From Halanaerobiales bacterium (GTDB lineage Bacteria; Bacillota; Halanaerobiia; Halanaerobiales; Halanaerobiaceae): DNA of 32,000 nucleotides. The translations under genes were made by a program, and so were the position numbers. The stretch is taken from contig JADQBT010000002.1 of the NCBI GenBank assembly GCA_016278485.1, positions 386,570-418,569 of the forward strand, given 5' to 3'. The notes beneath the pieces are model-generated. The model worked only from the letters and a program-made list of their open reading frames with translations, was not told the DNA's origin and did not search any database. Below, piece after piece: positions 4,192 through 25,240 of this stretch (the stretch's first letter is position 1; each line of letters begins with the position of its first letter).

Positions 4192-5511
4192 TTAATGCTT
4201 CAGTATTTTTAATAATTCTTCTTCTGTAAGACTAATAAAGTCAACTCTCTTATTATTCTTGATTATTTCTGCATCTTTTACTCTTTTTGATGGTTTTATA
4301 ACTTGTTTTTCTCTTTTTTCATAATCATTATTATCATTATGGTTATTATCGTTTTCAATTATATGGGGTGTTAAAAATATAATTATTTCACTTGTTATTT
4401 CACTTACTTCTTCACTTGAAAATAGTCTTCCCAAGAGGGGGATTTGACTCAAAATTGGTACATTTGCATAACTTTTTAATATATCTTTTTTTATTAACCC
4501 ACCAATAGCAAGCGTTTCTCCATTTTTTAACCTGACTGTAGTTTCAATATTTCTTGAATTAATAGCAGGTAACCCATCACTAAACTTTTGACCAAGACTA
4601 CTTACAGAGGGTTTTACTTCTAAAATTATTTGATCATTTGCAACAATATTGGGTAAAAACTCTAATACAATGCCTGCATCTATATATTTTATTGTCGAAA
4701 CTGTTTTTCCATCTTCAATTGTCTCTAATTTAACAGGTACTTGATCACCAATTAGCAATTTTGCTTTTTTACCATCAAGGGTCATAAGACTAGGGTTTGC
4801 CAATAATTCCGCTGCCCCTTGTTCTTCTAAAGATCGTAAAAGATCTGGCCAGGTAAGTTGAATTTTGTCTAATTGACCTGAATCATTTTTAATAAAATTC
4901 AAGGTTGAAAGTTGCTCAGTATGGATACCTAATTTTTTTAATTCTGTCCTGGATACTTCCTCAACACGTGCCTCTACCATTACCTGTTTTCTTGGTAAAT
5001 CTAATTTTTTAACGGTCTTTTTAAGACTATTTATTAAATTATTATCACCAGAGACTATTAAATTTTGTTGGTCGAAAGATATTTTTAAGTCTGGATAGAA
5101 TTCTTTTAATTGATTTAATATTTCCTCTGGTTTGCGATAAGCTAATTGAATAATTCTTTGCGAGTTATTTTGAAAGAGACTCTTCATTCTTTCTTCCGTT
5201 GCTACAAAAATTGTATTCTTTTCCAGTCGATACTGTAAATGATAACCGGTAGTTATTAATTTCAGTGCTTCTTCAAATGTTAAATCCTTTAAAAAAAGTG
5301 TTACCACACCCGTCACAGACTTATCAATAACAATATTATATTCTGCTAACTGAGCTAGCATCAATAATGAATCTTGCAAATCTGCTTGGTCTAAATTAAT
5401 GCTAATTGTTTTTTCTAAACTCCCACCAGCAAAAATATTACTTTCTCCCATAAGTATTAACAAAAACAACAAAATTACTACTATTATTTTACTATTTATT
5501 TTGTTTTTCAT
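4192..5511 (-). CDS. outer-membrane secretin (PilQ/GspD family), cluster B
   Basis: There is a Sec signal peptide (...ESNIFA/GGS). An N0/STN-like domain follows (ISINLDQADLQDSLLMLAQLAEYNIVID...). The C-terminal secretin domain includes ANPSLMTLDGKKAKLLIGDQVPV, TTVRLKNGETLAIGGL, VPILSQIPLLGRLF and IIIFLTPHII. Confidence 0.85.
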   Translation of the reverse strand: MKNKINSKIIVVILLFLLILMGESNIFAGGSLEKTISINLDQADLQDSLLMLAQLAEYNIVIDKSVTGVVTLFLKDLTFEEALKLITTGYHLQYRLEKNTIFVATEERMKSLFQNNSQRIIQLAYRKPEEILNQLKEFYPDLKISFDQQNLIVSGDNNLINSLKKTVKKLDLPRKQVMVEARVEEVSRTELKKLGIHTEQLSTLNFIKNDSGQLDKIQLTWPDLLRSLEEQGAAELLANPSLMTLDGKKAKLLIGDQVPVKLETIEDGKTVSTIKYIDAGIVLEFLPNIVANDQIILEVKPSVSSLGQKFSDGLPAINSRNIETTVRLKNGETLAIGGLIKKDILKSYANVPILSQIPLLGRLFSSEEVSEITSEIIIFLTPHIIENDNNHNDNNDYEKREKQVIKPSKRVKDAEIIKNNKRVDFISLTEEELLKILKH

Positions 5512-6118
5512 ACCATTTCTCCTTAATATTTAAGTGGCCTTCAATCTCCTTATATTTAAATTTTATATAATTTTTATCTATCTCTATTAACTTATATTCT
5601 GCTATTTCATCGCCAACTTTTAAATAATAATCCTTACTTTGATAAGATAATAAAACAAGAAAATTATTATCTGATCCAATAATACCTTTTAAGATAAATG
5701 GAATTTTTATCTTTAATTGCTTATTTTTTATAACTTTTTCAACTGCTAATATTTCAACTTTTTCTATTGGTTCTTTTTCTTTAATTTCTCTTGAGCTTGT
5801 CTCTTTTTTTTGACTACTAATAGCAAACTTTTCACTAACTTCTTCTTTTTGAGTAAAAAAAGGATCTTGTAAGTCTTGATAACTATAAAGCAATCTACCA
5901 CTCGCAAAGTTATTAATATCTTTAATTTCCTTTTCTGTACTTTCCTTTTCTCTATTTTCTATTATTATATTTTGTTTATTAGGCTTAGATTTAAGGACGC
6001 TTTGCTGACTAAGCTCATTTGCTTTACTAACTTGTTGTTTTTGGTCATTTAGATAGTAAATTATCAACATTAAAATAATAAGACAAATTAAAATTAGAAT
6101 AATATATTGTCTTTTCAT
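5492..6118 (-). CDS. PilP-like pilus assembly protein (membrane-anchored), cluster B
   Basis: It has an N-terminal TM segment, a K/E-rich linker and a C-terminal beta-domain (ILKGIIGSDNNFLVLLSYQSKDYYLKVGDEIAEYKLIEIDKNYIKF) resembling PilP. The gene sits directly upstream of the secretin, and its start overlaps the upstream stop as TAATG. Confidence 0.45.
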   Translation of the reverse strand: MKRQYIILILICLIILMLIIYYLNDQKQQVSKANELSQQSVLKSKPNKQNIIIENREKESTEKEIKDINNFASGRLLYSYQDLQDPFFTQKEEVSEKFAISSQKKETSSREIKEKEPIEKVEILAVEKVIKNKQLKIKIPFILKGIIGSDNNFLVLLSYQSKDYYLKVGDEIAEYKLIEIDKNYIKFKYKEIEGHLNIKEKWYEKQNK

Positions 6119-6585
6119 TAATAATCTCTCCAGATTATATTTATTAAAGTTATATTTGCTCTCAAATTATGACTGAGCTTAGTAATCTTTAAACGCTCAA
6201 TCTTATAGGTTAATTTACTTTGTTGTAATAGGGCAAAAAACTTAATTAAAGAAAAATAATTTCCTTCCAATAAAATATTTACTTTATTGTCAATTAAATT
6301 TGGATAATAACCTGACATTATTAATGTTGTATTTTCTAAACAACTCTTTATCTCTTTTAAAAGTTCATGATCATTATAATTTTTTTTTATTATTGGAGAA
6401 GGAACAGTTGCTTTATTATTTTTAACTAAATTTTTAATTTTATTTTGGATTTGTTGATTCTCTATTTTAATCGATTCTAAATGGTGATAATCTCTAATCC
6501 AATAACGGATATTGATTAAAATCACAAATAGCAAAAAAATAATTAACGTTATTTTAATTCGCTTATTCAGCATGATAATCACCAA
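6118..6585 (-). CDS. PilO-like pilus assembly protein, cluster B
   Basis: It has a single N-terminal TM segment followed by a coiled-coil (QQIQNKIKNLVKNNK) and then an alpha/beta region. It lies between the PilN-like and PilP-like genes. The real start may be the ATG at 6573 (MLNKRIK). Confidence 0.5.
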   Translation of the reverse strand: MVIIMLNKRIKITLIIFLLFVILINIRYWIRDYHHLESIKIENQQIQNKIKNLVKNNKATVPSPIIKKNYNDHELLKEIKSCLENTTLIMSGYYPNLIDNKVNILLEGNYFSLIKFFALLQQSKLTYKIERLKITKLSHNLRANITLINIIWRDY

Positions 6586-7063
6586 TTTTTAGAGGAATAA
6601 CTAATATTACGAATTGTAATTTATCTTGTCCCTTCATTTCCAATAATTGAACATCTTCTAAATAAGGCGATAGGCCCAGTTTTTCTAAATATTTAATAAC
6701 TTCGTCTGACTGTTTTGCTCTCCCCGAAATTTGGATAGTTCCTTTAGTTAGTAGAATAGAATTTAATTCTATTCGATTAGTGATAGCAAGTGCCAATTCT
6801 TCCAAAATTAAATCCAATGAATAGTTCTTATTATCAACAGTTTTTTTATCAGGTCCATTTTGCTTTAATTTTATGTTTTCTAAACTTAATAATTTATTAT
6901 CTAGATTACTTTTTAAATTTAGTTCTGTTTTAACTCTTTTTTGATATATTTGTGACAGAGCAAAAATCAATAAAAAAATTAGCAAGAGTATGATTAAAAT
7001 TAGCGTTAAATTTAACTTATTTTTCTTCAACTCGTCTTTTTTATAATTTAGATTAATTAACAT
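6563..7063 (-). CDS. PilN-like pilus assembly protein, cluster B
   Basis: The N-terminal MLINLN resembles the conserved PilN INLLP PilM-binding motif. A single TM segment and a coiled-coil follow. The gene lies immediately after PilM and overlaps it. Confidence 0.55.
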   Translation of the reverse strand: MLINLNYKKDELKKNKLNLTLILIILLLIFLLIFALSQIYQKRVKTELNLKSNLDNKLLSLENIKLKQNGPDKKTVDNKNYSLDLILEELALAITNRIELNSILLTKGTIQISGRAKQSDEVIKYLEKLGLSPYLEDVQLLEMKGQDKLQFVILVIPLKIGDYHAE

Positions 7064-8010
7064 GCTCTAACTCCACCCAATGCTCCACCTAAAGCCGTTG
7101 CAAAGCAGGATGGTATTTTATAATCTTCAGCAAATAATTTTACATTCATTGCTAAATTTCCTATTAATAACTGACGAAAACTTTTTAAATCTACTCCTCC
7201 TCCGGTAATTAAAACTGTTTCAGTTCTAAAATCACAATATCTTTTTAAATAAATATTTGTTTCATCTATTTCTCTAATTAAATTATTTACTGCAAATTGC
7301 AGATACTTGCTTGCATTGTTTTTTTGATAATAATTATCTTTTTCTTTTAATTTTTTTGCATCTTGATAGAGTAACTGCAATTCATGCATAATTATCTCTG
7401 TAAAATAGTAGCTATTAAAATCAACTTCTCTAACTAAATTGATACAGTCATTATTAAGATGGATAATTTTAGTTCCCTGGCATCCTAAATCAACTATCAT
7501 TAGCTCGTCCAATTTGGGATAATAATATCTTGCTAAATTGAATAATGCCAGTGGTTCTGCTGTGATAATAATATTTTTTTGTTCTCTTGTACTAAATAAG
7601 CCAATCAATTGGTCGATAGTATTTTTGGGAGATGCAAAAAGATAGCTAATGCCGGTTTTATTATGCTTAGGTTCCCAGAGATCATAAATATATTTAATAG
7701 GATTACCTAAATTAGCAAGAACATTTTCTATCTCTTGCTCAGATTTAACTTCCGTACTTGGTAAAACCTTGAAAATTACATCATTTACAGGTAAGGAGAT
7801 TATAATATTATATTTTAATAATTTTTCTTTCCGTAAAATATTGATTATATCTTGTAATTCATGATATGCAATCTTTTTTGAATAAACTTTATTATATTCA
7901 TAAACTTTAGTCTGTTTGATATTTATCTGGTCTAATTTCTTTATATATTTTAAGTTAATTACTTTAACCGCAGAACTTCCAAAATCTAGTGATGTTAACT
8001 TTTTAACCAC
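7057..8010 (-). CDS. pilM: PilM-like actin-fold pilus assembly ATPase, cluster B
   Basis: Actin-like phosphate and adenosine motifs are present: LTSLDFGSSAVKVINL, VDLGCQGTKIIHL and LITGGGVDLKSF. The start is GTG at 8010, preceded by AAGGAG plus 8 nt. Confidence 0.75.
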   Translation of the reverse strand: MVKKLTSLDFGSSAVKVINLKYIKKLDQINIKQTKVYEYNKVYSKKIAYHELQDIINILRKEKLLKYNIIISLPVNDVIFKVLPSTEVKSEQEIENVLANLGNPIKYIYDLWEPKHNKTGISYLFASPKNTIDQLIGLFSTREQKNIIITAEPLALFNLARYYYPKLDELMIVDLGCQGTKIIHLNNDCINLVREVDFNSYYFTEIIMHELQLLYQDAKKLKEKDNYYQKNNASKYLQFAVNNLIREIDETNIYLKRYCDFRTETVLITGGGVDLKSFRQLLIGNLAMNVKLFAEDYKIPSCFATALGGALGGVRAC

Positions 8011-8015: not shown

Positions 8016-8402
8016 TTACTCCTTTCGTACAATTTCAACCTCTTGCATGACAAAATCATTCTTAGTTAGTTTTGCTCTGATTTCTACAATCGTATCATCT
8101 GCTTTTCCAGAAACTTCAAGATAATAAAAAAATAATTCTTCAGTAATGACAAGTTCAGCTGATTGTTGATTATTTAATGTTATAGTTTTTTCATTACTAA
8201 TATTCTCTTCGGAATTTACTAATAGATATTTAGCAACAATTATACCTGATCTTGCCGCCATTTTTGCCAGCTTATAATTTCTTGTTTTATTGCTTAATTG
8301 TAAATTTATATAAGATCCATGTACCAATAATGAACTAATCAAGCCTAAGGTTACAATTAGTAGCAAAATTGAAATTAATATATAACCATGATTGTTTAAT
8401 AT
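8016..8402 (-). CDS. PilX/ComGG/GspK-like minor pilin-associated protein, cluster B (start codon uncertain)
   Basis: The ORF-track start (TTG at 8366) leaves only about 14 hydrophobic residues. In frame upstream the sequence reads N-I-L-N-N-H-G-Y-I-L-I-S-I, giving NNHGYILISILLLIVTLGLISSLLV, which parallels the cluster A PilX_N protein (NENGSALLLIMVIIVVLTVIG). AKMAARSGI resembles the PilX_N AEAG motif. AAGGAG lies 8 nt before ATA at 8402, and no ATG, GTG or TTG is available upstream. Confidence 0.5.
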   Translation of the reverse strand: MLNNHGYILISILLLIVTLGLISSLLVHGSYINLQLSNKTRNYKLAKMAARSGIIVAKYLLVNSEENISNEKTITLNNQQSAELVITEELFFYYLEVSGKADDTIVEIRAKLTKNDFVMQEVEIVRKE

Positions 8403-8405: not shown

Positions 8406-8942
8406 TTATTCTCCTTTCCCTAATGGATTTGCAGAAATTATTAGCTGATTATTCAACAAATCGTCCGTTATTTTAATTCGCAAGTAGATTAATTCTTCAT
8501 TCGTTGATAGCCAACCAAATTCTAGTTTATTAATCTTTTCTATTAAAGCAGTTGGTCTTTTATAAATGATTAAACCATTTTCTTCATGACCAATAGATCT
8601 TCCTAATTTTCTTAAACCACCTGAATAATATTCTTCAAAAGATATCCACTGCCATTCATCTTTATAGATAGTATAAAGATTAATCCTACTTTCACTTAAA
8701 AGTTCAATCTCTTTTGCCATTTCAATTTTTTCTACTATATAATCAGCGACCAATTGGCTATCTTGCATCACACCTACCCGATAATCTACCTTTTCTAAAC
8801 TGTCATTAAATAGTAAAATTGTTTTTAAAATTAGCATGCTTACTACTGCAAGCAATAAAATAGCTATTAAATTTTCTAATAAGGTAAAACCCTGACAGTT
8901 TTTGAAATATATTTTACATGGCTTCTGCTTCATTAATTTCAT
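8406..8942 (-). CDS. minor (pseudo)pilin with prepilin-type N-terminus (PilW/GspJ position), cluster B
   Basis: It has a class III signal peptide, ...NCQG/FTLLENLIAILLLAVV, with G at -1 and E at +5. Confidence 0.8.
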   Translation of the reverse strand: MKLMKQKPCKIYFKNCQGFTLLENLIAILLLAVVSMLILKTILLFNDSLEKVDYRVGVMQDSQLVADYIVEKIEMAKEIELLSESRINLYTIYKDEWQWISFEEYYSGGLRKLGRSIGHEENGLIIYKRPTALIEKINKLEFGWLSTNEELIYLRIKITDDLLNNQLIISANPLGKGE

Positions 8943-9366
8943 TCCACTCAGCTAAAATTGTAGATATTACAAAATCATTACTAATGTTTTTACTACTATA
9001 ATTCACATTGATATTGACCTGATATAATCCGGGATAAATAGTCTCATTCTCTGCATAAGGTTTAACTTCTACTACAGTTGCCTCAATCTGCTTATTTAAA
9101 AATATTTCTTCTAATTCTGCCAATAAAATAATTATTTCAGACTGGCTTTTACCCACAAGTTTAGCTAATTCAACCTGTTCAGTATTCAAATAATTGACTA
9201 CTGACTCTCCCCAATTTGCTGCTTGATTACTATCTTCAATAAATGCTCTTACATCAAGAGCTGTGCTAATTGTTCTACTAAAACTAACCAGTACTACACC
9301 AGCCAGGGATATAGAAATTACTATCTCAAGTAATGTAAAACCACTTTTATTATTTAGATTTTTCAA
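8914..9366 (-). CDS. minor (pseudo)pilin with prepilin-type N-terminus (PilV/GspI position), cluster B
   Basis: The N-terminus MKNLNNKSG/FTLLEIVISISLAGVVLV is a class III signal peptide. Confidence 0.8.
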   Translation of the reverse strand: MKNLNNKSGFTLLEIVISISLAGVVLVSFSRTISTALDVRAFIEDSNQAANWGESVVNYLNTEQVELAKLVGKSQSEIIILLAELEEIFLNKQIEATVVEVKPYAENETIYPGLYQVNINVNYSSKNISNDFVISTILAEWNEINEAEAM

Positions 9367-9859
9367 TATTAATCCTCCCCATCTGATTAATTGTCACCTG
9401 AAAAATTCTTTCACCATCTCCCAAGCCAATCGTACCACTTAAGGCTGTGCCATAACCTGTAAAGCGAATTCTATCATAATAAGGATCAGCAACTAACACC
9501 GGACTAGAGTTTTTGTATAAAAGCAAGCTATCAGGATAACTTCCTTCTCTAATAACTTGCATTAGATTATCCTGGTCAAGATAATAAATTATATAGTCTG
9601 CTTTATAATCTTCATCTGTTTTATAAATATCATCTACTGAATAAACCCTTAGCCGATAAGTTTTATTATCAGCAATGGCTTTTGCTCTGGTCCAACGTAA
9701 ATCATTGCTAAGTATACCTATTGCTTCATTTAGTTCTGCTCTTGCTAGTTGCGACTGGCTAAAAATTATGGGAGCAGAGACAACTGAAAAAAGGACTAAA
9801 ACCATTAATAGTTCTATCAGTGTCAAACCTTTCTGATTGCTTAGATAGCTAATTATCAA
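9350..9859 (-). CDS. minor (pseudo)pilin, FimT/GspH-like, cluster B
   Basis: The N-terminus is ...SNQKG/LTLIELLMVLVLFSVV. LSNDLRWTRAKAIADNKTYRLRV resembles the GspH/FimT domain core. Confidence 0.75.
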   Translation of the reverse strand: MIISYLSNQKGLTLIELLMVLVLFSVVSAPIIFSQSQLARAELNEAIGILSNDLRWTRAKAIADNKTYRLRVYSVDDIYKTDEDYKADYIIYYLDQDNLMQVIREGSYPDSLLLYKNSSPVLVADPYYDRIRFTGYGTALSGTIGLGDGERIFQVTINQMGRINIEKSK

Positions 9860-10257
9860 GGTGTTGGAGTTGTAGTACTAGGACCAGCTACCATCCCATC
9901 TGAACTATTAACATAATAGTATTCATTGTCTGATGTTAAATAATAAGCTAAATATGATTTTTCATTATTACCAGATTGATAATTATAATCAGAACTTGGA
10001 TTTGACAAAGATAGGTCTAGATCAGTTAAAGTACCAATCTCAACTGCAGTAGTAGCTGTTGGGTAAGATTTTTGATCCATATAGTACATTTCTAAACCAT
10101 ACATAATATTATGCAGATCACTTTTTACTACAGTCAGGTCAGCTTTCTTTTTTACACCACTAAAACCAGGGACAGCAATACCGATTAATATCCCCAAAAT
10201 TACAATTACAATCATCAATTCAATTAATGTAAAGCCTTTTTCATTAATATTTTTCAT
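9856..10257 (-). CDS. major type IV pilin / pseudopilin, cluster B
   Basis: The N-terminus is MKNINEKG/FTLIELMIVIVILGILIGIAVP. It is the first pilin gene after the platform gene and has a strong RBS (AAAGGAGAG). It contains no cysteine and ends with the S/T/P tail GPSTTTPTP. Confidence 0.85.
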   Translation of the reverse strand: MKNINEKGFTLIELMIVIVILGILIGIAVPGFSGVKKKADLTVVKSDLHNIMYGLEMYYMDQKSYPTATTAVEIGTLTDLDLSLSNPSSDYNYQSGNNEKSYLAYYLTSDNEYYYVNSSDGMVAGPSTTTPTP

Positions 10258-10271: not shown

Positions 10272-11312
10272 TTAGCCAATTACAGTATATAACTGAAAAA
10301 TAGGCAATACCACAGTAACTGCAAGTAAACCAACTATAGCAGCCATAAAAACTATTAAAGCTGGCTCTAATAATGTCAACAATTTTTTAGTACCCTTTTC
10401 TAGTTTCTGTTGATAAAGTAGTGCTGCTTTATTCAGCATTAATGATAAACGACCTGTCTCCTCTCCCGTAATTATTAACTGATAGTAGATTTTAGGAATT
10501 AATTTATTTCCATTTAAGCTACTACTGAGACGACCTCCTTTCCTAATTATTAATTCAGTTTCTTCCATTATTTTCTGATATGAATTGTTATTAATAACTC
10601 CATTTGATATTTTAAGAGTAGTGATTAAATCCAAACCACTTTCCAGTAACATACTCATTGTTCCAGCAAGATTACTCAATATCGAATACTGATATAACTT
10701 ACCAATGATAGGAAAATATAATAAATAATTTTTTATAAATTTGACAGCTTTTTCTGTACTAAGTAAATAAAATATAGCCAAGATAAAGAGAAATAAAAAC
10801 ATAAGTAAATAAAATATATTTTCCTTAATAAATTCTCCAGAATTCAAAAGAATCATTGTAAGTAATGGTAAATCTTTTGAAAAATCTGAAAATATGCGTG
10901 AAAATGTAGGTAAAACTTGCCAGATGAAAAATATACCTGCTAAAAAGGTTACTATTAAGACAATTACTGGATAGTATAATAATTGTTTTATTTCAGCTTT
11001 TAGTTTATTTTCTCTTAAATAATGTTGATTAATTTCAGAAAAAGCTTCTGCTAATTTACCAGTTTGTTCTCCAACCTTTACCATAGCAATAAATAAATCT
11101 GGAAAGTGTTGATTATGTTTTTTTAATGCTTCTGTCAAAGAAAATCCTGCTTCAATATCATTACTAACTTCATTAATGATATTGCTAATTAACTGATCAT
11201 CACTCTGAGATATTAATAAAGTAAGAGCAAGTTGTATCGGTAAGTCTGCATCTATTAATAAATATAATTGTTCTGCTATATAAAGCTTGTCCACTTTTTT
11301 CAATATCAACAC
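10272..11312 (-). CDS. GspF/PilC-family platform protein, short ComGB-sized form (346 aa), cluster B
   Basis: Two T2SSF-type repeats are present (LIDADLPIQLALTLL... and LLESGLDLITTLKIS...), along with 3 TM segments. The GTG start at 11312 directly follows the ATPase TAG stop, so the frame cannot be extended upstream. It lacks the roughly 60-aa N-terminal segment seen in the cluster A PilC. Confidence 0.85.
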   Translation of the reverse strand: MLILKKVDKLYIAEQLYLLIDADLPIQLALTLLISQSDDQLISNIINEVSNDIEAGFSLTEALKKHNQHFPDLFIAMVKVGEQTGKLAEAFSEINQHYLRENKLKAEIKQLLYYPVIVLIVTFLAGIFFIWQVLPTFSRIFSDFSKDLPLLTMILLNSGEFIKENIFYLLMFLFLFILAIFYLLSTEKAVKFIKNYLLYFPIIGKLYQYSILSNLAGTMSMLLESGLDLITTLKISNGVINNNSYQKIMEETELIIRKGGRLSSSLNGNKLIPKIYYQLIITGEETGRLSLMLNKAALLYQQKLEKGTKKLLTLLEPALIVFMAAIVGLLAVTVVLPIFQLYTVIG

Positions 11313-12983
11313 CTATCCTGTAACTCTTAATACTTCTTCAAGAGTTGTTATTCCAGAAACAACCTTATCAAGTCCATCTTCCTTTAAAGTTATCATTCCT
11401 TTTGAAATAGCATAAGCTTCCATAGCCGCTTCACTCTGACCTTGCATAATTAATTCTCGCAAATGGTCGTCTAACATCAGTACTTCATGAATTGGTACTC
11501 TTCCTTTATAACCCTGATCAGCGCATACAGAACAGCCTCTTCCTTTTTTTAGCTCAATTCCTTCACTAATTAAATTATCCAGTTTTCTAATGCCTGTTCT
11601 GACAGGATAATATGATTTCCTACACTCAGGACAGATCTTTCTAACAAGCCGTTGAGCTACTACACCTGATAAGGATGAAGCTACTAAATAAGGCGGTATA
11701 TTCATTTCAAGCAAACGAGTAATACTACTTACCGCATTGATAGTATGTAAAGTGCTAAAGACTAAATGACCTGTAATAGCAGCCCTAATAGCTATCTTAG
11801 CCGTTTCTTCGTCCCTAATCTCTCCTAACATGATTATATCTGGATCCTGTCTTAAAATAGCTCTTAAGGAAGTTAGAAAGTTAATTCCTGTTTTTTCCTC
11901 TGTCTCAATCTGGGTAATTCCTTTAAGTTTATATTCTACTGGGTCTTCAATTGTAGTAATATTTGTAGCTGGATCGTTAAGTCTGTCCAAGGCTGAAAAT
12001 AAAGTTGTTGTTTTCCCACTACCTGTAGGACCAGTTAATAGAATTATACCGGAACTGTGATTAAGTATCTTTTTAAAATTGTTAAGATTAACTGAGGTAA
12101 AACCTATTTTTTCAAGATTTAATAATTGACCTTTTTTAGGTAAGATTCTCATCACAGCTTTTTCTCCATAGATAGTCGGAATGACAGCTACTCGCAAGTC
12201 GCATAATTGGCCATTAATATTTTTTTCTAATCTCCCATCCTGTGGTTGTCTTCTTTCAGTGATATCCATGCCAGCTATAATTTTTATTCTAGAAATAATA
12301 GCTGGAGCGATACCTTTTGGAAATGAAAGTTTTTCTATTAAGATACCATCAACCCGATATCTAACTCTAATCTTATCTGGTTGTGGTTCAATATGAACAT
12401 CACTAGCGTCTAACTCAATTGCCTGTTCTATAATTAAGTTTACTAACTTTACTACTGGTGCATCATCAACAATTGCATTTAAATTATTTTTTTTAATCTT
12501 TTCTTCTTTTAATAAATCTTCAACCTCACCAATCAATACCTTTTGATCTTTTTGATACTGATCTCCATATATTTCTTTTTTAATTTTATTATATAATTTT
12601 TCACTAATTAACTTTATTTTTAATCTATATCCTGTGCTTGATTTTATTTCTTCTCTAATAGCCAAGTTTAATGGTTCCTGCATTGCTAATGTCAATACTT
12701 TATTTTTTAATTTGACTGGAAGCAATTTATACTTGACTGCCAGATTATAGTTAACTTTTTGTCCCAAATTTTGTTCTAATTTGAAATCTTTTTCCTGACA
12801 GAGTGGAATCTTATATTGTTCACTTAAAGCAGAAAAAAGTTGTTCTTCTGTGATTATACCTTCACTAATTAATAGTTTTCCTATTCTTTCACCTGGCACT
12901 TCCCTCTGTTTTGCCAAATAATTATTTAAATTTATACTATCAATAAAACCTTTTTTTATTAAAATTTGCCCAATTTTTAACAT
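11313..12983 (-). CDS. type IV pilus / T2SS assembly ATPase (PilB/GspE family), cluster B
   Basis: The N-terminus is a T2SSE_N/MshEN domain. Walker A is GPTGSGKTTTLFSAL, the Asp box/Walker B is DPDIIMLGEIRD and the His box is STLHTIN. There is a tetracysteine motif, CPECRK...CSVCADQGYKGR. The RBS is GGAGGTGG. Confidence 0.9.
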   Translation of the reverse strand: MLKIGQILIKKGFIDSINLNNYLAKQREVPGERIGKLLISEGIITEEQLFSALSEQYKIPLCQEKDFKLEQNLGQKVNYNLAVKYKLLPVKLKNKVLTLAMQEPLNLAIREEIKSSTGYRLKIKLISEKLYNKIKKEIYGDQYQKDQKVLIGEVEDLLKEEKIKKNNLNAIVDDAPVVKLVNLIIEQAIELDASDVHIEPQPDKIRVRYRVDGILIEKLSFPKGIAPAIISRIKIIAGMDITERRQPQDGRLEKNINGQLCDLRVAVIPTIYGEKAVMRILPKKGQLLNLEKIGFTSVNLNNFKKILNHSSGIILLTGPTGSGKTTTLFSALDRLNDPATNITTIEDPVEYKLKGITQIETEEKTGINFLTSLRAILRQDPDIIMLGEIRDEETAKIAIRAAITGHLVFSTLHTINAVSSITRLLEMNIPPYLVASSLSGVVAQRLVRKICPECRKSYYPVRTGIRKLDNLISEGIELKKGRGCSVCADQGYKGRVPIHEVLMLDDHLRELIMQGQSEAAMEAYAISKGMITLKEDGLDKVVSGITTLEEVLRVTG

Positions 12984-13027
12984 ATTCCACCTCCTATAAT
13001 TTACAAATAATGGAATTTAATTTATAT

Positions 13028-13121: not shown

Positions 13122-13143
13122 CAAAAAATAACTTGTCATATTT

Positions 13144-16604: not shown

Positions 16605-17676
16605 TTAAACATAAGCCAATTGCTAATGCTAGTTCATATTCTTTTTCACGGCAATCTTCATCATTTATTATCAATTTTGAAAATGGATCTATTTCATATA
16701 GTTCCTGACCAATTTCATTTGCAATAACATCTTTTAACCCTTCTAATCGCAGTCCGCCGCCTGAAACATATATTTTATCAATAGTTTCACCATGATTTTG
16801 ATGGCGATAATAACTTAAAGATCTGGATATCTCATCTGCTAATTCAACTGCTAAACTATACATTCTACTTTCTTCATTATATTTTGTCTCAGTCTGGGAA
16901 AGTGCCAGATCAAAATCTAACTCCTGCTCTGGTGCTTTTATCTTTCTTTTTCTTTTTTCTTTTTCAGCTTTTGTGAAATTTACTCCATTTTCTTCAAATA
17001 ACTCGGTAAAAGCGATTCCACCAATATCAATAGTTCTTGCTAAATAAACTGTTTTTTGATTACCAATCACAACTCTAGTATTTGCTGCTCCTAAATCAAC
17101 TATCGCCACAGGTTTTTCTAGTAAATTTTGATATTCTAAAATACTTAATAAAGCCATAGATGGGGCATTAACGGTTTTCACTTTTATATAATCGTCTTTA
17201 AAAGGCTTTAAAAAATTATCTATAATTTTATTTTGTACTGCTACTAATAGTAGTTCCTGTTCATTTTCATTTTCTGCTACTTTAATATGATCAAAAGCAG
17301 CCTGTTCGATGGGAAAAGGTAAAATATCATCAACTTCCCATTTGACTGCTTCTTTTAATTCATCTTTTTCTAAAATTGGCATATTTATAGTCCTGATCAC
17401 TACATTTTGAGCAGAAACAGTTGTCACAATTTCTTTTGGTTTATAACCAACTTCTTTATATAGATCATTTAAACAGCTAACGACAAGGGAATTATCAACA
17501 ATTTCACCTTTTTGAACTGCATCTAAGGGAAGATCTATCTCTCCCCAGCGATGAAGCTCCAATTTTTCACCCGTATCTTTAAGTTGAATCATCTTCGCTG
17601 AATAATGTCCAATATCAACTGCGGTTATCGTCTTTTTCTTTTTATTTAAAAAGGGAAATTTAAACACCTTTGTCAC
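16579..17676 (-). CDS. pilM: PilM, actin-fold type IV pilus assembly protein, cluster A
   Basis: Motifs present are ITAVDIGHYSAKMIQL, VDLGAANTRVVIG and YVSGGGLRLEGL. The start is GTG at 17676, or GTG at 17667, which lies 8 nt after GAGG. Confidence 0.85.
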   Translation of the reverse strand: MTKVFKFPFLNKKKKTITAVDIGHYSAKMIQLKDTGEKLELHRWGEIDLPLDAVQKGEIVDNSLVVSCLNDLYKEVGYKPKEIVTTVSAQNVVIRTINMPILEKDELKEAVKWEVDDILPFPIEQAAFDHIKVAENENEQELLLVAVQNKIIDNFLKPFKDDYIKVKTVNAPSMALLSILEYQNLLEKPVAIVDLGAANTRVVIGNQKTVYLARTIDIGGIAFTELFEENGVNFTKAEKEKRKRKIKAPEQELDFDLALSQTETKYNEESRMYSLAVELADEISRSLSYYRHQNHGETIDKIYVSGGGLRLEGLKDVIANEIGQELYEIDPFSKLIINDEDCREKEYELALAIGLCLSEVIAYES

Positions 17677-17688: not shown

Positions 17689-18222
17689 TCAAGGAGTAGT
17701 TTGTTTAATTTTATAATAGATTAAATGATAATTGTCTCCTGGATTATTACTAGTTTTAAAATCACTCTGCTTTTCTAAGTTCTGTAAAAAAACTTTTGAA
17801 TCAAATGTTTTGCTTTTATCCTTTAATTCTGCTGTAATATTAAAAGTTAATAAATTTTTTCCGGGGTCATTTCTTGTAAAAATTAATTCTGTAAAAATTG
17901 GTTGAAACTTATTAATTGAATTATCAAAACTCACATGTCTAAGATAACCATTATCTAAAAAAAGATAATTATCTCCTTCAACTAGGGTTTCCATGTCAGA
18001 AGGACTAGGATATAAATGTACATAATCTGCTTTTCTTACCCTAGTTGTAATATACCTTGTAGCCAATTCAAGGTTATTATTTAAATCAGCCCTTAGCTCG
18101 GTTTTATTGAATGTTCGCAAACTGAAAGAAAAAAAGTTAAAGCTAATTGTAAGCACCAGTCCTAAAATAGCTATCGCAACAATTAATTCAATTAATGTAA
18201 AGCCAGACTGGTCACTTTTCAT
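17689..18222 (-). CDS. minor pilin with prepilin-type N-terminus, cluster A
   Basis: The N-terminus MKSDQSG/FTLIELIVAIAILGLVL is a class III signal peptide. The protein ends in ...KQTTP. Confidence 0.8.
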   Translation of the reverse strand: MKSDQSGFTLIELIVAIAILGLVLTISFNFFSFSLRTFNKTELRADLNNNLELATRYITTRVRKADYVHLYPSPSDMETLVEGDNYLFLDNGYLRHVSFDNSINKFQPIFTELIFTRNDPGKNLLTFNITAELKDKSKTFDSKVFLQNLEKQSDFKTSNNPGDNYHLIYYKIKQTTP

Positions 18223-18227: not shown

Positions 18228-18632
18228 TTAACCTCCCTCAGGAATAAATGAAGTTACTGATACAGTACGCTGCTGGCTATTCTTAACAGTATATGGTATT
18301 GATACAGTAACAGTTTTTCCAGTTACATCTATCGTATCACCATTAGCAATTGTAATTGTTTTAGTCTGTTCTTCTGAAACTGTCACATCACCCTCAGTAC
18401 TACTTATATCAGTTAATTGATTATAATTTTTAGCAAACTGTTCTTCCATTATTTCCTGAGCCTGATAGAGATGATCTACTTTACGGTTATTGATAGTTAC
18501 ATTTACATAGCCTGAACCGAAAAGTTGTGTAAAGGCTGCAACAACAAGTCCTAAAATCAAGATGGATAGAACAACTTCTATTAGAGTAAAGCCTTTTTCC
18601 TTACTGCCAATATTTTTGATAAAAACCACCAC
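18228..18632 (-). CDS. minor pilin with prepilin-type N-terminus, cluster A (start refined)
   Basis: The N-terminal region reads ...NIGSKEKG/FTLIEVVLSILILGLVV. The ORF-track ATG at 18725 would give a 45-aa leader and overlap the upstream gene by 125 nt. A GTG at 18632/18629, 5-8 nt after GGAGG, gives a normal 12-13-aa leader. Confidence 0.7.
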   Translation of the reverse strand: MVVFIKNIGSKEKGFTLIEVVLSILILGLVVAAFTQLFGSGYVNVTINNRKVDHLYQAQEIMEEQFAKNYNQLTDISSTEGDVTVSEEQTKTITIANGDTIDVTGKTVTVSIPYTVKNSQQRTVSVTSFIPEGG

Positions 18633-19921: not shown

Positions 19922-20647
19922 TTAAAACAAATAATTTAAAATCTCTGGCCAGATAATAATAAGCAATGCTCCCAGAACAAGAAAAGGTCCAAAAGGAAGT
20001 TTTGATTTCATCTTTTTCTGACCAGCTATCATTAAAGCAATTCCCACAATTGATCCAAATAAGGCTGCCAGAAAAATATTAATTAAAACTGCTTTAACGC
20101 CAATAAAAGAACCAAGCAGCGCAGCTAACTTAATATCTCCTCCACCCATACCGCCTTTAGAAAGAAAGGCAATCAGAAGTAAGCTTCCCCCGCCTACTAC
20201 CAGACCAAGCAAGGCCTGAAAAATATTAATATGGGAAAAGAAAACTGCCAATATAATACCAATAACTAAACCACTTAATGATAATTTATCTGGAATAATC
20301 TGATAATGGAAATCTATCATCGCAATGACAATTAAAAATGAAGCAAACAGTATATATATACCAAAATTTATTGATAAATCATATTGCAAATATAATAATG
20401 AAAATATAATTCCTGTAAATAATTCAATCAATGGATATTCAAAACTAATTTTTGTATTACAATGACGACATTTACCACCCTGGATCATAAAACTAAGAAC
20501 AGGTATTAATTCCCACCAGTCCAGCCTGTTCTCACAGACCGGACAATGAGATGGTGGGGAAATTATTGATTTACCTTCTGGTAAGCGGTAAATACAGACA
20601 TTAAGGAAACTGCCTATGATTAACCCTGTAAAAAAAATGAATAACAT
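19922..20647 (-). CDS. pilD: prepilin peptidase / N-methyltransferase (peptidase A24)
   Basis: CPVCENRL...GKCRHC provides the cysteine pairs. The protein is polytopic and carries the GGGDIKL catalytic Asp motif. It is the only such gene in the window. Confidence 0.9.
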   Translation of the reverse strand: MLFIFFTGLIIGSFLNVCIYRLPEGKSIISPPSHCPVCENRLDWWELIPVLSFMIQGGKCRHCNTKISFEYPLIELFTGIIFSLLYLQYDLSINFGIYILFASFLIVIAMIDFHYQIIPDKLSLSGLVIGIILAVFFSHINIFQALLGLVVGGGSLLLIAFLSKGGMGGGDIKLAALLGSFIGVKAVLINIFLAALFGSIVGIALMIAGQKKMKSKLPFGPFLVLGALLIIIWPEILNYLF

Positions 20648-20650: not shown

Positions 20651-21085
20651 TTATGGAGTTGTTGAAATTCCACTAGGTGTAACCGTTAAAGTAGTACCAT
20701 TTACTGTTAATGAAATTTCATAAGTATCACCAGTTGCGGAATAATAAGTGACATCATCATATTTTGATGTAAAGCTATCAACATTTTCATCACTCATATA
20801 TTCTGTATCTTCATCACCATCTTGATCATTAAGTGAATTTAAACCACTACTATTATTGGCACCTGTATCAGTAGGATATTCATTAAAATCTACATAATAC
20901 ATTTCTAAAGCAGTCTGGAAGTTTTTAACTTCACTTTTTGCAGCAGCCATATTTGCGTTTTCACGGATACCTGTCAACCTCGGGATGGCGATACCTGCCA
21001 ATATACCCAACACAGCAATAACAATTAACAACTCAATCAAGGTAAAACCTTCACGACTTTTTAACATTTTTCTCATTTTTTCCAT
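20651..21085 (-). CDS. pilA: major type IV pilin, cluster A
   Basis: The N-terminus is MEKMRKMLKSREG/FTLIELLIVIAVLGILAGIAIP. The ATG at 21085 is preceded by GAGGAGGAG plus 6 nt. The 32 upstream aa in the ORF track are over-extension. The globular part is acidic and cysteine-free, and it ends TPSGISTTP. Confidence 0.85.
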   Translation of the reverse strand: MEKMRKMLKSREGFTLIELLIVIAVLGILAGIAIPRLTGIRENANMAAAKSEVKNFQTALEMYYVDFNEYPTDTGANNSSGLNSLNDQDGDEDTEYMSDENVDSFTSKYDDVTYYSATGDTYEISLTVNGTTLTVTPSGISTTP

Positions 21086-21231: not shown

Positions 21232-22452
21232 TTAAAACGCTGTATACATATCAAACATTGGCATCACTATTGAAATAGCTATAAATCCAACTATTACAGC
21301 CAACATGACAATCATCACTGGTTCAATTAGAGAAATCGAACCATCAATTGCTGCTTGGACTTCACTATCATAAAAATCAGCCAGCCTGTCCAACATCTCA
21401 TCAAGTTGTCCTGTTTCTTCCCCCACCGAAATCATCTGAATAACCATAGGAGGAAACTCCTCACTCTTTTTAAGTGGTTCGGAAAGGGCTATCCCTTCCC
21501 TAAGGCGCGTCCTGGCATCAATTAACACATCAGATATCACCTTATTCCCAACCACATCATCGACAATGGCCAGAGCATCTAGAAGTGTTACCCCACTAGA
21601 TAAAAGCACACCAAGTGTATGTGAAAATCTGGATATCTCAATTTTTCTCCGCATGGGACCAAAAACTGGCACCTTTAAAATAAAGCGGTCAAAATGCTCT
21701 CGTCCTGTTTTGGTTCGAACATAACTGAAAAATCCAAGAATACCGAAAACAACTACTGCAATAATTAACCACCAAAAATTCTGAAATAAATCACTAAAAA
21801 ATATTAAAATCCTGGTCGGTAAAGGTAAAGTGGAGTTTAAGTCAGCAAAAATAGATATTAAATTAGGGACAACAAAAGTCATTAGAAAAAAGATACTAAC
21901 AATAGCCACTACTAAAATCGTTAAAGGATAATACATAGCCGATCTGATCTGATTATTAATCTCACTCTGTCTTTTATAATGATCGGCCAATCTTTGTAAA
22001 ACTGTGTCTAGCACACCACCCACTTCACCAGCTTTGATCAACTGTGTAAAGAGTCGCGGAAAGACTTCTGGGAATTTTTCCATCGCACCTGATAGAGATT
22101 CACCTTTTTCAATTTCATCTATCATCTCTGTAACCACTTTTTCAATAGTTGGATGATCTGTTTGCTCTTTGATGATTACTAATGATTCAATTAAAGGAAT
22201 ACCAGCATTAACCATGACATGAAACTGTCTACTAAATATAGCCAGATCAGAAGTCGTAACTTTTTTCTTCCGTAAAGAACCAAGATCTACATTTAAGGAA
22301 AATCCCTTTTCTTTAACTTCTTTTATATTTACTACAAAATAACCCTGATCACGTAGTTGGTTAACAACCTGACTTTTATTATCAGAACTAATTGAACCAT
22401 TTACAGAGTTTCCCTGTTTGTTTTTAGCCTGATATTTGAATACAGGGCACAT
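21232..22452 (-). CDS. pilC: type IV pilus platform protein PilC (GspF family)
   Basis: The protein is 406 aa with two T2SSF repeats (FSRQFHVMVNAGIPLIESL... and FSHTLGVLLSSGVTLLDAL...) and 3 TM segments. It is full length, including the N-terminal cytoplasmic segment. Confidence 0.9.
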   Translation of the reverse strand: MCPVFKYQAKNKQGNSVNGSISSDNKSQVVNQLRDQGYFVVNIKEVKEKGFSLNVDLGSLRKKKVTTSDLAIFSRQFHVMVNAGIPLIESLVIIKEQTDHPTIEKVVTEMIDEIEKGESLSGAMEKFPEVFPRLFTQLIKAGEVGGVLDTVLQRLADHYKRQSEINNQIRSAMYYPLTILVVAIVSIFFLMTFVVPNLISIFADLNSTLPLPTRILIFFSDLFQNFWWLIIAVVVFGILGFFSYVRTKTGREHFDRFILKVPVFGPMRRKIEISRFSHTLGVLLSSGVTLLDALAIVDDVVGNKVISDVLIDARTRLREGIALSEPLKKSEEFPPMVIQMISVGEETGQLDEMLDRLADFYDSEVQAAIDGSISLIEPVMIVMLAVIVGFIAISIVMPMFDMYTAF

Positions 22453-22469
22453 ATTTTCTACCTCCAGTA

Positions 22470-23543: not shown

Positions 23544-23545
23544 CT

Positions 23546-25240
23546 CTAGTAAACAATCTGACGCAGTTCTTCAAAAGTTGTCAGACCGTTAATCATCTTT
23601 TCAATACCATCTTCTTTTAATAATTTCATTCCCTGAGAGCTGGCATAATTCTCAATTTCATTCACACCTACATCTTTAATAATCATATCTTTTATAACAT
23701 TATCCATCACTAATAATTCTTGAATAGCTAGTCTCCCCCGATAACCTGTTTGGTTACAATGAGGACAACCTACTGCACTATATAGTTTATCAACCCTTGG
23801 TTCTATATTCGCTCCCCCAATGCTTTCAAGTAATAAAAGTTCATCTTCGCTCGGATGATGAGGACTTTTACACTTTGGACAAAGCTTTCTGACAAGGCGT
23901 TGGGCCATCAGACCATTTATGGAAGCTGCCACCAGATAATCAGGTATACCCATATCAATCAGTCTGGTAATTGAGCTAACCGCATCATTGGTATGAAGAG
24001 TACTTAGCACAAGATGTCCAGTTAAAGCGGCTCTAACAGCAATTGCAGACGTTTCTTCATCACGAATTTCACCAATCATAACTATATCTGGATCTTGGCG
24101 TAAAATAGAACGTAAAGTTTTTGCAAAAGTCAATCCGGACTTTGGTTTAGCCTGCACCTGGTTGATACCCTTCAATTGATATTCAACCGGGTCTTCAATT
24201 GTAACAATATTTTTACTTTCATTGTTAAGCTCATTTAATGCTGCAAATAGAGTAGTAGATTTACCACTACCAGTTGGTCCAGTTACTAAAAAAATGCCAT
24301 GTGGTCTTTTAATTATATCCTTAAATTTATCAAGGTTATAATTATTAAAACCTAAATTATTGATATCCAATAAACCATGATCCTGGTTTAAAATTCTAAT
24401 TACTACTTTCTCTCCGTGAATCACAGGAAGCGTCGAGACGCGAAAATCATAATTACTACCCTTTATCTTCATTTTTACTCTGCCATCCTGAGGAGTTCGG
24501 CTTTCTGTAATATCTAGATCAGCCATAATCTTAAAGCGAGAGGTAAGTGCAGCCCGGGTATGCCTAGGAGCCGACATTTTTTCTAATAAAACCCCATCAA
24601 TTCTATATCTAATCCTGACTCTATTCTCTTGTGGTTCAACATGAATATCACTTGCCTTAGACTGAACGGCTTGAGTAATAATAGCATTAGCGAATTGAAT
24701 AATAGGAGCTTCTTCCACCATCTGCCGCAATTCACCAATTTCAGATTCATTTTCTGGAATCATATTTTCTAGATCAGCCATAATCTCTGCTGTATCCATA
24801 TCATCTGCAACATAGATTTGATCTAATGCATGTTCAATCTCCTGCGTAGAAGCAATCAAAGGTTCTACTTTCAGCCCAGAACTTCTCTCAATGTCATCAA
24901 TTGTAACTAAATCTGAGGGATCAGCCATAGCTACCTTTAACTTATTATTATCTTTAGCAAGTGCAACAACCATATTCTTTCTGGCAAGTGATTCTGGTAT
25001 AAAACGCGCCATTAATGGTTCAAGTTTATAATTACTTAAATCAGCATGAGGAATACCCATTTGAAACTCCAATACCTGAATTAAATCATTTTCTTTAATA
25101 TAACCTAAATCGACAAGTTGTCGTCCTAATTTTTTATCAGAAATCTTTTGTTGCTTTAATGCTTCATTAAACTGTTCTTGCGAAATATAATTAAAATCAA
25201 TCAGCAACTCGCCCAACTTCTTTATAGTTCGTTTACTCAT
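23546..25240 (-). CDS. pilB: type IV pilus assembly ATPase PilB
   Basis: The N-terminus is a T2SSE_N/MshEN domain. Other motifs are GPTGSGKSTTLFAAL, DPDIVMIGEIRD and STLHTND. The tetracysteine motif is CPKCKS...CPHCNQTGYRGR. The RBS is AGGAGAG. Confidence 0.92.
   Translation of the reverse strand: MSKRTIKKLGELLIDFNYISQEQFNEALKQQKISDKKLGRQLVDLGYIKENDLIQVLEFQMGIPHADLSNYKLEPLMARFIPESLARKNMVVALAKDNNKLKVAMADPSDLVTIDDIERSSGLKVEPLIASTQEIEHALDQIYVADDMDTAEIMADLENMIPENESEIGELRQMVEEAPIIQFANAIITQAVQSKASDIHVEPQENRVRIRYRIDGVLLEKMSAPRHTRAALTSRFKIMADLDITESRTPQDGRVKMKIKGSNYDFRVSTLPVIHGEKVVIRILNQDHGLLDINNLGFNNYNLDKFKDIIKRPHGIFLVTGPTGSGKSTTLFAALNELNNESKNIVTIEDPVEYQLKGINQVQAKPKSGLTFAKTLRSILRQDPDIVMIGEIRDEETSAIAVRAALTGHLVLSTLHTNDAVSSITRLIDMGIPDYLVAASINGLMAQRLVRKLCPKCKSPHHPSEDELLLLESIGGANIEPRVDKLYSAVGCPHCNQTGYRGRLAIQELLVMDNVIKDMIIKDVGVNEIENYASSQGMKLLKEDGIEKMINGLTTFEELRQIVY

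Follow-up and report, generated by a model that had tools for sequence, protein, structure and literature searches.

Within a 32,000-nucleotide stretch of contig JADQBT010000002.1 from a Halanaerobiales bacterium (hereafter the window), we identified 25 co-directional genes at 4192-25240 that form two sets of type IV filament genes, with a secretin gene as the last member of either (Table 1). All 25 lie on the minus strand, which carries every gene from 1037 to 31931. Scanning the translated open reading frames (ORFs) with Pfam and NCBIfam models resolved set A (25240-13338, minus strand) into the order PilB-PilT-PilC-pilin-PilD-PilX_N/DUF7305 protein-two minor pilins-PilM-PilN-PilO-like-PilP-like-secretin, and set B (12983-4192, minus strand) into twelve genes in the order ATPase-platform-pilin-four minor pilins-PilM-PilN-PilO-like-PilP-like-secretin. 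These scans recovered the two paralogous sets in the order given by a preliminary description of this DNA, including a true secretin in each, as judged from hidden Markov model (HMM) matches to Secretin domains in both terminal genes. Exactly as had been described, seven proteins across both sets carry a class III signal peptide with the canonical G/FTLIE-type N_methyl motif, and the window holds one PilD and one PilT, both in set A; two further proteins (18601-19893 and 8016-8402) possess non-canonical K/PilX-type N-termini. The same description had spoken of two complete machines, which was not borne out, as set B has neither PilD nor PilT, and its platform is missing the first ~60 residues; set B would therefore depend on set A. 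From its sequence, set B appears to be a monophyletic, uncharacterised and reduced paralogue of the type IVa pilus (T4aP) confined to Halanaerobiaceae-like genomes, occurring here in tandem with set A and in a less derived form.

Among proteins of known structure, Geobacter PilB tops the list of matches to the set B ATPase at 459 bits, with GspE at 405 bits. Both window ATPases fall below the strict NCBIfam PilB equivalog cutoff of 675.65 (set A, 628 bits; set B, 562 bits), and PilQ is the best NCBIfam subfamily for both secretins, again below its cutoff of 284 (set A, 213 bits; set B, 195 bits). The set B platform could be aligned only to positions 62-400 of the GspF model, its orthologues are similarly 326-352 amino acids (aa) long, and T2SSF_N was detected on the called set A platform product, not on that of set B. 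All twelve set B frames are open and tightly packed, most having a ribosome-binding site (RBS) or overlapping the preceding stop codon, and the invariant core motifs of the secretin and the ATPase are kept. The fourth minor pilin is unusual in that its conserved prepilin-like N-terminus (NILNNHG/YILISILLL) follows the preceding gene's stop codon directly, with no ATG, GTG or TTG ahead of it and an AAAGGAG RBS 8 nt 5' of an ATA codon; its Halanaerobium orthologues (127-143 aa) have ATG starts.

Set B also encodes its own candidate alignment proteins. Its PilN retains the INLxx N-terminus, and the INLxx-bearing N-terminal region of PilN is the PilM-binding site. The PilO-like and PilP-like proteins were aligned with their Halanaerobium orthologues and related to the corresponding set A families by profile-profile comparison (hhalign; Table 1). 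A profile search of PDB sequences with the PilP-like families returned nothing, and the link to proteins of known structure comes from predicted fold only: an AlphaFold2 model of the set B PilP-like protein, built from a two-sequence alignment and usable only in its C-terminal beta domain, where the predicted local confidence (pLDDT) is 76-87, matched by Foldseek the GspC-HR domain 3oss_C (TM-score 0.83, root-mean-square deviation 2.0) and PilP structures of Pseudomonas and Neisseria (2y4y, 2lc4 and 2ivw). The C-terminal domain of 5492-6118 is thus predicted to adopt a PilP/GspC-HR fold. The set B secretin aligns collinearly along its entire length with HofQ of E. coli (E 2e-30, identity 24%), whereas the set A secretin aligns to HofQ in two pieces flanking an insertion; the set B secretin has one periplasmic N-domain fewer.

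Comparison of the two sets revealed amino acid identities of 43% for the ATPases, 38% for the pilins and 35% for the secretins, 33% for both PilN and PilP (local alignments), 29% for the platforms and 22% for PilM. The 22-43% range points to an old split and not to a recent duplication. Phylogenies of the ATPases and secretins, which the preliminary description had called for, were reconstructed by neighbour-joining on corrected p-distances with 100 bootstraps. The B ATPases and the B secretins are each monophyletic (100% in both cases). The B secretins cluster with A-type secretins of Halanaerobiaceae and Halothermotrichaceae (77%), and this group in turn with those of Halobacteroidaceae (93%), while the B ATPases cluster with the Halanaerobiales A clade, including Anoxybacter (70%). 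The trees favour duplication within Halanaerobiales at supports of 70-77%. Also, the best database match of the B ATPase is an ordinary PilB of Halothermothrix orenii (48% identity).

The two sets further differ in composition. The ATPase, PilM, PilN, PilO and PilP of set B have isoelectric points (pI) of 8-10, the cytoplasmic and inner-membrane equivalents in set A are acidic, and the set B pilins are acidic. The very acidic pilin A had been said to fit a halophile; this sign is weak, and was rejected as uninformative because of the basic character of most set B proteins. Within this AT-rich window (GC 0.25-0.37), overall GC is lower in set B (0.22-0.32), while GC at third codon positions (GC3) is equal in both sets (0.16-0.29). 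This indicates that the lower GC of set B stems from amino acid composition and not from foreign codon usage, which argues against a foreign origin.

To place set B in a wider context, one genome per species was scanned, which yielded many Halanaerobiales loci, and loci (L-numbers below) were compared with the window proteins by BLASTP. The set B order (ATPase-platform-pilin-GspH-like-two minor pilins-K-type-PilM position through to the secretin) was found in two strains of Halanaerobium saccharolyticum, in H. kushneri and in several Halanaerobium or Bacillota metagenome-assembled genomes (MAGs). These clusters are 44-48% identical to set B of the window by BLASTP, with 44-52% as the range across Halanaerobium, and encode a platform of 326-352 aa, a K-type protein of 127-143 aa, a protein of 249 aa at the PilM position, proteins of 154, 150 and 243 aa, and a secretin of ~445 aa. 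Behind the cluster lie a Wzy_C gene, in four of the six loci, and an aroK-aroB fusion. A search with the B secretin recovered about 65 short-secretin clusters at 45-52% identity, and all of those with a named source were from Halanaerobium or a Bacillota MAG. The Halanaerobium short secretins have been variously auto-annotated as PilQ, GspD or HofQ, and GspE is among the labels given to the cluster. Set B, short secretin included, thus occurs throughout Halanaerobium, which marks it as a trait conserved in this lineage, not as an oddity of the source genome, and overturns the rarity implied by the preliminary description; only the direct tandem juxtaposition of the two sets is special to the source genome.

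Halanaerobium genomes with set B also carry an orthologue of set A, PilT and PilD included (L005, L006 and L009), and neither PilT nor PilD occurs in any Halanaerobium set B cluster. A single contig of H. saccharolyticum WC1 bears the two sets, separated by ~15 kb of other genes; judged by eye from their N-terminal sequences, these include EAL-type signalling and ilv/leu biosynthesis genes. A protein resembling EAL-type cyclic di-GMP (c-di-GMP) signalling proteins, likewise recognized by eye (N-terminus …QPILDKNKNVFAYELLFRG…), is encoded right behind the A-type secretin in Halanaerobium (L009 11943-13160, and L006), with ilv/leu genes, again assigned by eye, between it and set B. Other Halanaerobiales hold just one set at this chromosomal site. 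The H. orenii locus reads U32-DUF4911-SigK-YqeG-SleB-...-Fur-...-CRP-EamA-aroE-PilB-PilT-PilC-pilin-PilD-DUF7305-..., which represents the aroE-PilB side, and a Halothermotrichaceae MAG (L022) reads PilP-secretin-aroC-aroK, which represents the secretin side, while Fuchsiella has one full set running aroE-PilB-...-secretin-...-aroC-aroK. In Natroniella sulfidigena (L036 9920-13029), two secretin genes (533 and 418 aa) stand in tandem behind one pil cluster, which is another way for a Halanaerobiales genome to have two secretins, and a Desulfurobacteriaceae locus (L069) likewise holds two.

Set A retains every core part of the T4aP known from Pseudomonas, Myxococcus and Thermus (PilBTCD-PilMNOPQ), and shows synteny with the locus of H. 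orenii. Set B shares with T4aP a PilB-type motor, platform, pilins, separate PilM and PilN, PilO, PilP and a secretin, and differs in having no PilT or PilD, a truncated platform and a secretin one N-domain short. The set A PilT is 61-66% identical to PilT of Halanaerobium loci. For the set A major pilin, translation likely starts at the ATG at 21085, giving the leader MEKMRKMLKSREG ahead of FTLIE, with an RBS (GAGGAGG) preceding codon 33 of the ORF. The large PilX_N/DUF7305 protein is probably a GspK/PilX-like tip component. The weak T2SSM match of the set A PilO-like protein is complemented by an Anoxybacter gene from the equivalent slot of its pil cluster, after PilM and PilN, which is part of the set A PilO alignment and carries Pfam PilO.

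Table 1. Genes and signals of the two filament sets and their immediate flanks, in the direction of transcription.
Feature	Position	Strand	Evidence
aroE (shikimate dehydrogenase)	25311..26216	-	NCBIfam aroE 242 bits, cutoff 200; upstream anchor of the putative ancestral pil cluster
Set A PilB extension ATPase	23546..25240	-	T2SSE 1.8e-143 and MshEN; NCBIfam PilB 628 bits
Set A PilT retraction ATPase, 357 aa	22470..23543	-	T2SSE 1.5e-50; NCBIfam pilT_fam fits also
Set A PilC platform, full length	21232..22452	-	T2SSF x2 1.5e-65; GspF/PilC models aligned over positions 1-400
Set A major pilin	20651..21085 (ORF to 21181)	-	N_methyl and T2SSG
Set A PilD prepilin peptidase	19922..20647	-	A24_N_bact 5.9e-36, Peptidase_A24 5.5e-21
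Set A large PilX_N/DUF7305 protein, 430 aa	18601..19893	-	DUF7305 2.2e-10, weak PilX_N, weak GspK 2e-7
Set A minor pilin 1	18228..18629	-	N_methyl 5.1e-07; start per gene call in L001
Set A minor pilin 2	17689..18222	-	N_methyl 1.3e-09
Set A PilM	16579..17676	-	PilM_2 1.3e-39; NCBIfam pilM 180 bits, cutoff 133
Set A PilN	16074..16604	-	PilN 5.5e-10; N-terminal MRVNLLQ motif
Set A PilO-like	15536..16081	-	Weak T2SSM 7.8e-05
Set A PilP-like	15091..15543	-	No Pfam match; assigned from position and homology to set B PilP-like (hhalign 95.9%)
Set A secretin, 587 aa	13338..15101	-	Secretin 6.9e-49, Secretin_N x2, N0/STN
46-aa ORF MDEEKTKKDFRQKDDSTESNSGCTTEKGKIVIDNKATVNINVNFNA	13144..13284	-	Between secretin A and terminator; strong RBS GCAGGAGGTG
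Intrinsic terminator, end of set A unit	13090..13122	-	14-bp stem, 5 GC pairs, T-run; 0.0 expected in shuffles
Promoter-like site for set B	13028..13057	-	TTAGCA-18-TAGAAT, consensus match only; then strong RBS AGGAGGTG before B ATPase
Set B PilB-family ATPase	11313..12983	-	T2SSE 5e-129 and MshEN; pI 9.0
Set B platform	10272..11312	-	T2SSF x2 5e-44; lacks N-terminal ~60 residues
Set B major pilin	9856..10257	-	N_methyl 6.3e-10; leader MKNINEKG/FTLIE; C-terminal tail GPSTTTPTP
Set B minor pilin 1, GspH/FimU/ComGD-like	9350..9859	-	N_methyl; GspH PF12019 3.2e-4, at cutoff; ComGD 3e-8
Set B minor pilin 2, GspI/ComGE position	8914..9366	-	N_methyl 6e-06
Set B minor pilin 3, GspJ/ComGF position	8406..8942	-	N_methyl 8.7e-07; weak ComGF 2.8e-5
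Set B minor pilin 4, GspK/ComGG/PilX position	8016..8402	-	No Pfam match (8016-8366); lacks Glu5
Set B PilM-like	7057..8010	-	PilM_2 3.7e-11, 43 bits, cutoff 27
Set B PilN	6563..7063	-	PilN 3.1e-09; N-terminal MLINLNY motif
Set B PilO-like	6118..6585	-	No Pfam match; hhalign against set A PilO family 95.6%, E 1e-8
Set B PilP-like, 208 aa	5492..6118	-	No Pfam match; hhalign against set A PilP family 95.9%; transmembrane helix, linker, beta domain
Set B secretin, 439 aa	4192..5511	-	Secretin 3e-46, N0/STN, one Secretin_N; HofQ-like
Intrinsic terminator, end of set B unit, just before aroC	4129..4154	-	10-bp stem then T7
aroC, Wzy_C (O-antigen-ligase family), aroK	1037..4117	-	Downstream anchor of the putative ancestral pil cluster; Wzy_C 1.6e-19

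The strong terminator described earlier between the two sets was recovered, and together with a second terminator behind set B and a promoter-like site ahead of its ATPase gene, it supports the proposal of two separate, if predicted, transcription units. No terminator was found between aroE and the set A PilB, and with terminators on both of its sides set B looks, on consensus-based prediction, like a discrete transcription unit. Rfam returned no match in the window at gathering thresholds, including c-di-GMP riboswitches, nor in 12900-13400 at E<=1. The 46-aa ORF situated between the set A secretin and the terminator has no Pfam match; it was considered as a conserved pilotin-like partner and rejected, since a homologue was missing from all examined loci of other organisms.

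Sequence motifs shared or lost between the sets were also examined. The MshE-type c-di-GMP motif NF053729 (cutoff 38 bits) is present in the set A PilB (64.9-68 bits; 24881-25240) and, in tandem, in the set B ATPase (49.8-52.6 bits; 12624-12983) of the window, and also in the PilB proteins of H. orenii and Fuchsiella, and is gone from all four Halanaerobium-type set B ATPases (L024, L026, L027 and L029). Both window secretins (4192-4260 and 13338-13400) and both Halanaerobium types end, after a K/E-rich linker, in E[FY]xxLTxEELxxIL, which is also found in the single Iocasia/Halocella SP3-1 secretin examined and not in Halobacteroidaceae or LysM-ended secretins; this motif may represent a helix for docking or pilotin binding that is specific to the lineage. 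At its C-terminus, the GspH-like pilin of set B reads GRVR(V/I)EK in the orthologues and GRINIEKSK in the window copy (9350-9400).

The tails of the window major pilins are rich in S, T and P (PSTTTPTP and PSGISTTP), and set B pilins all end in GPxxTxPT. Genes of the Wzy_C family were observed in the window between aroC and aroK (1570-2952, minus strand), at L009 19-1755 and in L027-L030; in H. saccharolyticum WC1, one lies directly upstream of pilin A. The sole PDB relative is a WaaL-type ligase. Since Halanaerobium set B pilins keep the tail with or without a Wzy_C gene behind the cluster, so that tail and gene are uncorrelated, C-terminal O-glycosylation of the pilins by Wzy_C is a possibility that we offer as a lead and not as a claim.

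Upstream of set A, the window encodes SigK, YqeG, a SleB-like protein, Fur, a CRP-family regulator and AroE, and the order U32-SigK-YqeG-SleB-Fur-CRP-AroE-PilB is the same as in H. orenii. Of the sporulation genes previously assigned to this flank, sigK stands above its NCBIfam equivalog cutoff (325.6 against 298.65 bits), whereas for the ORF at 28045-28737 SleB is the top match yet falls under its cutoff (196.8 against 236.5 bits). The best database matches of the window proteins are all from Halanaerobiales, and four metagenome copies of the locus differ from the window at 0-1 positions. The two secretins, the H. orenii synteny and these matches agree with the earlier assignment, and identify the host, by its gene content, as a Halanaerobiales-type diderm Firmicute with sporulation genes.

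How might set B work? Set A would be the ordinary retractile pilus of the lineage, with its full repertoire kept, and set B a separately transcribed, fast-evolving derivative with its own PilB-type motor, platform and major pilin. Four minor pilins in H-I-J-K order would prime and cap the set B filament, PilM-PilN-PilO-PilP would form its alignment complex, and a minimal N0-N1-secretin pore of HofQ type would provide its exit. In the absence of a peptidase in set B, cleavage of its five prepilins would have to rely on the set A PilD acting in trans, and retraction, if any, would be powered by the set A PilT. Set B probably builds a second pilus dependent on PilD of set A, and may draw on PilT in the same way. 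Taking all roles together, a second surface pilus is the reading that we consider the better supported. As to its output, DNA capture of the Hof/Com kind is our leading guess, tentatively held, and adhesion or biofilm formation, still more speculative, ranks second, ahead of secretion resembling that of a type II secretion system (T2SS).

Several features lead towards DNA capture. One is the ComGA-GG/GspE-K gene order of set B; three weak leads are the minimal, HofQ-collinear secretin, the secretin-aroK linkage as in E. coli hofMNOPQ-aroK-aroB, and the C-terminal GRVR that all orthologues of the GspH-like pilin possess, which fits the GRxR of FimT. The arginines of this FimT motif bind DNA, and the motif has been noted in Gram-positive Com pilins too (Braus et al., PMC8897410). 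Other observations weigh against this assignment: the GspH-like copy in the window reads GRIN, not GRxR; acidic pilins are encoded by set B; com genes are missing from its surroundings in the window; and set A could itself serve DNA uptake. Loss of the motif from the Halanaerobium-type B ATPases means that c-di-GMP control is not general for set B, and the start of minor pilin 4 may be either non-canonical or an early sign of decay in the source genome.

Comparison with known systems places set B, as far as its sequences indicate, as a T4aP derivative and not as a member of T2SS, MSH or ComG, because its ATPase ranks with PilB, its PilM and PilN are separate, and no Gsp, Msh or ComG model reaches cutoff. 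The msh locus of Vibrio cholerae is not known to hold a PilT of its own. Set B resembles mannose-sensitive haemagglutinin (MSHA) pili of that species in being a second system that derives from T4aP and has no prepilin peptidase of its own, and the window B ATPase possesses the MshEN c-di-GMP motif, like MshE, although this motif is lost in Halanaerobium copies. However, the MshL model scores only 116 bits on the set B secretin against a cutoff of 250, no MshK/M/N-type genes or Msh-specific families were matched, and the trees derive set B from Halanaerobiales PilB, not from the proteobacterial MSH clade. A prepilin peptidase is missing from every MSH locus, and MSH loci rely on other systems (Denise et al. 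2019).

With E. coli Hof and Pasteurellaceae Com, set B shares a minimal N0-N1-secretin protein of ~410-445 aa that is collinear over its full length. The secretin-aroK link is common to set B and E. coli (hofMNOPQ-aroK-aroB at K-12 3518543-3522751), and the Halanaerobium set B PilM-like protein (249 aa) is close in length to HofM (259 aa), whereas the E. coli genes are scattered over several loci and the secretins are only 24% identical. Secretin-aroK(-aroB) synteny is in this way common to Proteobacteria and diderm Firmicutes (the window and Halanaerobium set B). With ComG of Bacillus and Streptococcus (ComGA-GG), set B shares the order ATPase, platform, major pilin and four minor pilins, the last lacking Glu5, as well as a platform of ~330-345 aa, a peptidase encoded elsewhere and weak ComGD and ComGF matches. 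In contrast, the B ATPase has long N-terminal domains that ComGA lacks, the ComGA model (cutoff 300) scores 260 bits on set B and 267 bits on set A, the ComGB model reaches 115 bits on set B against a cutoff of 240, and ComG itself is without PilMNOP and a secretin.

Alternatively, set B could be T2SS-like, with a short pseudopilus of B pilin and an H-I-J-K cap pushing folded exoproteins through the short secretin, a reading that we consider unlikely. Set B resembles GspC-M in its gene order, E-F-G-H-I-J-K and then the L/M/C/D equivalents, in having a secretin and lacking a retraction ATPase, and in encoding a protein with a predicted PilP/GspC-HR fold. NCBIfam GspE, GspF and GspG are top or near-top models for the B ATPase, platform and pilin. 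One T2SS has also been counted among the six secretin-bearing filament systems of diderm Firmicutes (Denise et al. 2019), and for Halanaerobiales only type I (T1SS) and type Vb (T5bSS) secretion systems have been reported (Abby et al. 2016), which leaves a route for exoenzymes otherwise missing and makes such a role attractive, though the features of T2SS membership are not found. None of the relevant cutoffs is reached (GspE 576/630, GspF 260/424, GspD 184/351 and GspG 60/89 bits), and among PDB entries the B ATPase ranks with PilB, above GspE. Furthermore, PilM_2 and PilN are separate proteins in set B, with no fused GspL and no T2SSL match; against the N0-N3 of canonical GspD, its secretin carries a single N1-type domain; the PilP-like protein, as modelled, is without a GspC-type PDZ or coiled-coil C-terminal module; and the trees group set B with Halanaerobiales T4aP. 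Were set B nevertheless T2SS-like, it would provide a general secretory route across the outer membrane of these diderm Firmicutes.

Returning to set B as a T4aP paralogue, its gene content, its paralogy with set A and its orthologues across Halanaerobium are observed; synteny, trees and the shared secretin end lead us to infer that the two machines, paralogues of the T4aP kind, probably arose when a single pil cluster of ancestral Halanaerobiales, located between aroE and aroC/aroK, was duplicated in tandem. Whole-cluster tandem duplication predicts the layout of the window, in which set A adjoins aroE and set B adjoins aroC/aroK, and the shared E[FY]xxLTxEELxxIL end of the A and B secretins counts for a common Halanaerobiales origin. 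The window seems to keep an early post-duplication state, with the sets adjacent and the B ATPase motif retained. Three points weigh against this origin. The B clade is long-branched, and midpoint rooting places it outside all PilB sequences; the sister relation of A and B has support of only 70-77% in simple neighbour-joining trees; and in Halanaerobiales MAG.272 (L018 7960-8788), one GspH-like gene of the B type (40% identity), with a minor pilin gene after it, lies directly behind an A-type secretin of 887 aa, with no ATPase, platform or pilin gene between secretin and GspH-like gene, on a contig that ends there. The last arrangement implies that the set B minor-pilin block may predate the duplication, as an old part of a single ancestral system.

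The long branch and the midpoint root might also suggest that set B was gained horizontally from another phylum and landed beside the native pil cluster, as might its lower overall GC and a proteome basic-shifted relative to set A. We regard such a transfer as improbable, given that GC3 is identical between the sets, that the B ATPase and B secretin have Halanaerobiales proteins as their best matches, that the secretin tree nests the B clade within Halanaerobiales at 93%, that the LTxEELxxIL motif is common to A and B secretins, and that set B sits in the ancestral secretin-aroK position. Least probable of all is a decaying duplicate that assembles nothing. In favour of decay are the speed at which set B evolves, a signature of PilM that is weak at 43 bits, the truncation of the platform, a fourth minor pilin without a canonical start codon and the c-di-GMP motif lost in Halanaerobium copies. 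Against it stand twelve open and tightly packed frames, the retained secretin and ATPase core motifs, and a twelve-gene order kept the same in the source genome and Halanaerobium at only ~45% identity, which implies long purifying selection.

A bolder extension of the duplication reading, which we hold doubtful, is that set B represents an independently evolved, PilT-less and PilD-less T4aP derivative within the Firmicutes, either an outer-membrane-spanning counterpart of ComG or a secretion pseudopilus, here in a near-original post-duplication state. If true, set B would parallel the rise of T2SS and MSH from T4aP in Proteobacteria.

A single conserved type IV pilus locus with PilQ has been described in Negativicutes and Halanaerobiales (Antunes et al. 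2016, PMC5007114), a one-locus picture from which the source genome and Halanaerobium differ in holding a second, diverged locus. For diderm Firmicutes, Denise et al. (2019) listed six type IV filament systems with a secretin, without detail, and it is ordinary for one diderm genome to hold several type IV filament systems (Abby et al. 2016). A full-text literature search on pili, secretin, type II secretion or competence in Halanaerobium retrieved no study of the second cluster, in agreement with the preliminary description, which had held such a dual arrangement to be functionally undescribed; it had also raised the prospect of a common and already characterised arrangement, of which the first part applies and the second does not.

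Type IV filament systems are a textbook case of diversification into pili, secretion and DNA uptake, and the states before and after such a step would here lie adjacent in one genome, with set B as the later state: peptidase and retraction motor lost, platform and secretin shortened, and evolution fast. Whether Firmicutes were ancestrally diderm is a debate in which Halanaerobiales take a central place, and a lineage-wide second secretin machine at the secretin-aroK position, known also from E. coli, would add to the case for vertical inheritance of a secretin-bearing pilus apparatus. Set B also offers a concrete candidate for DNA uptake or protein export across the Halanaerobiales outer membrane. 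In hydraulically fractured shale wells, Halanaerobium is dominant and its biofilms are of consequence, and an uncharacterised pilus system conserved across this genus may therefore be a practical target.

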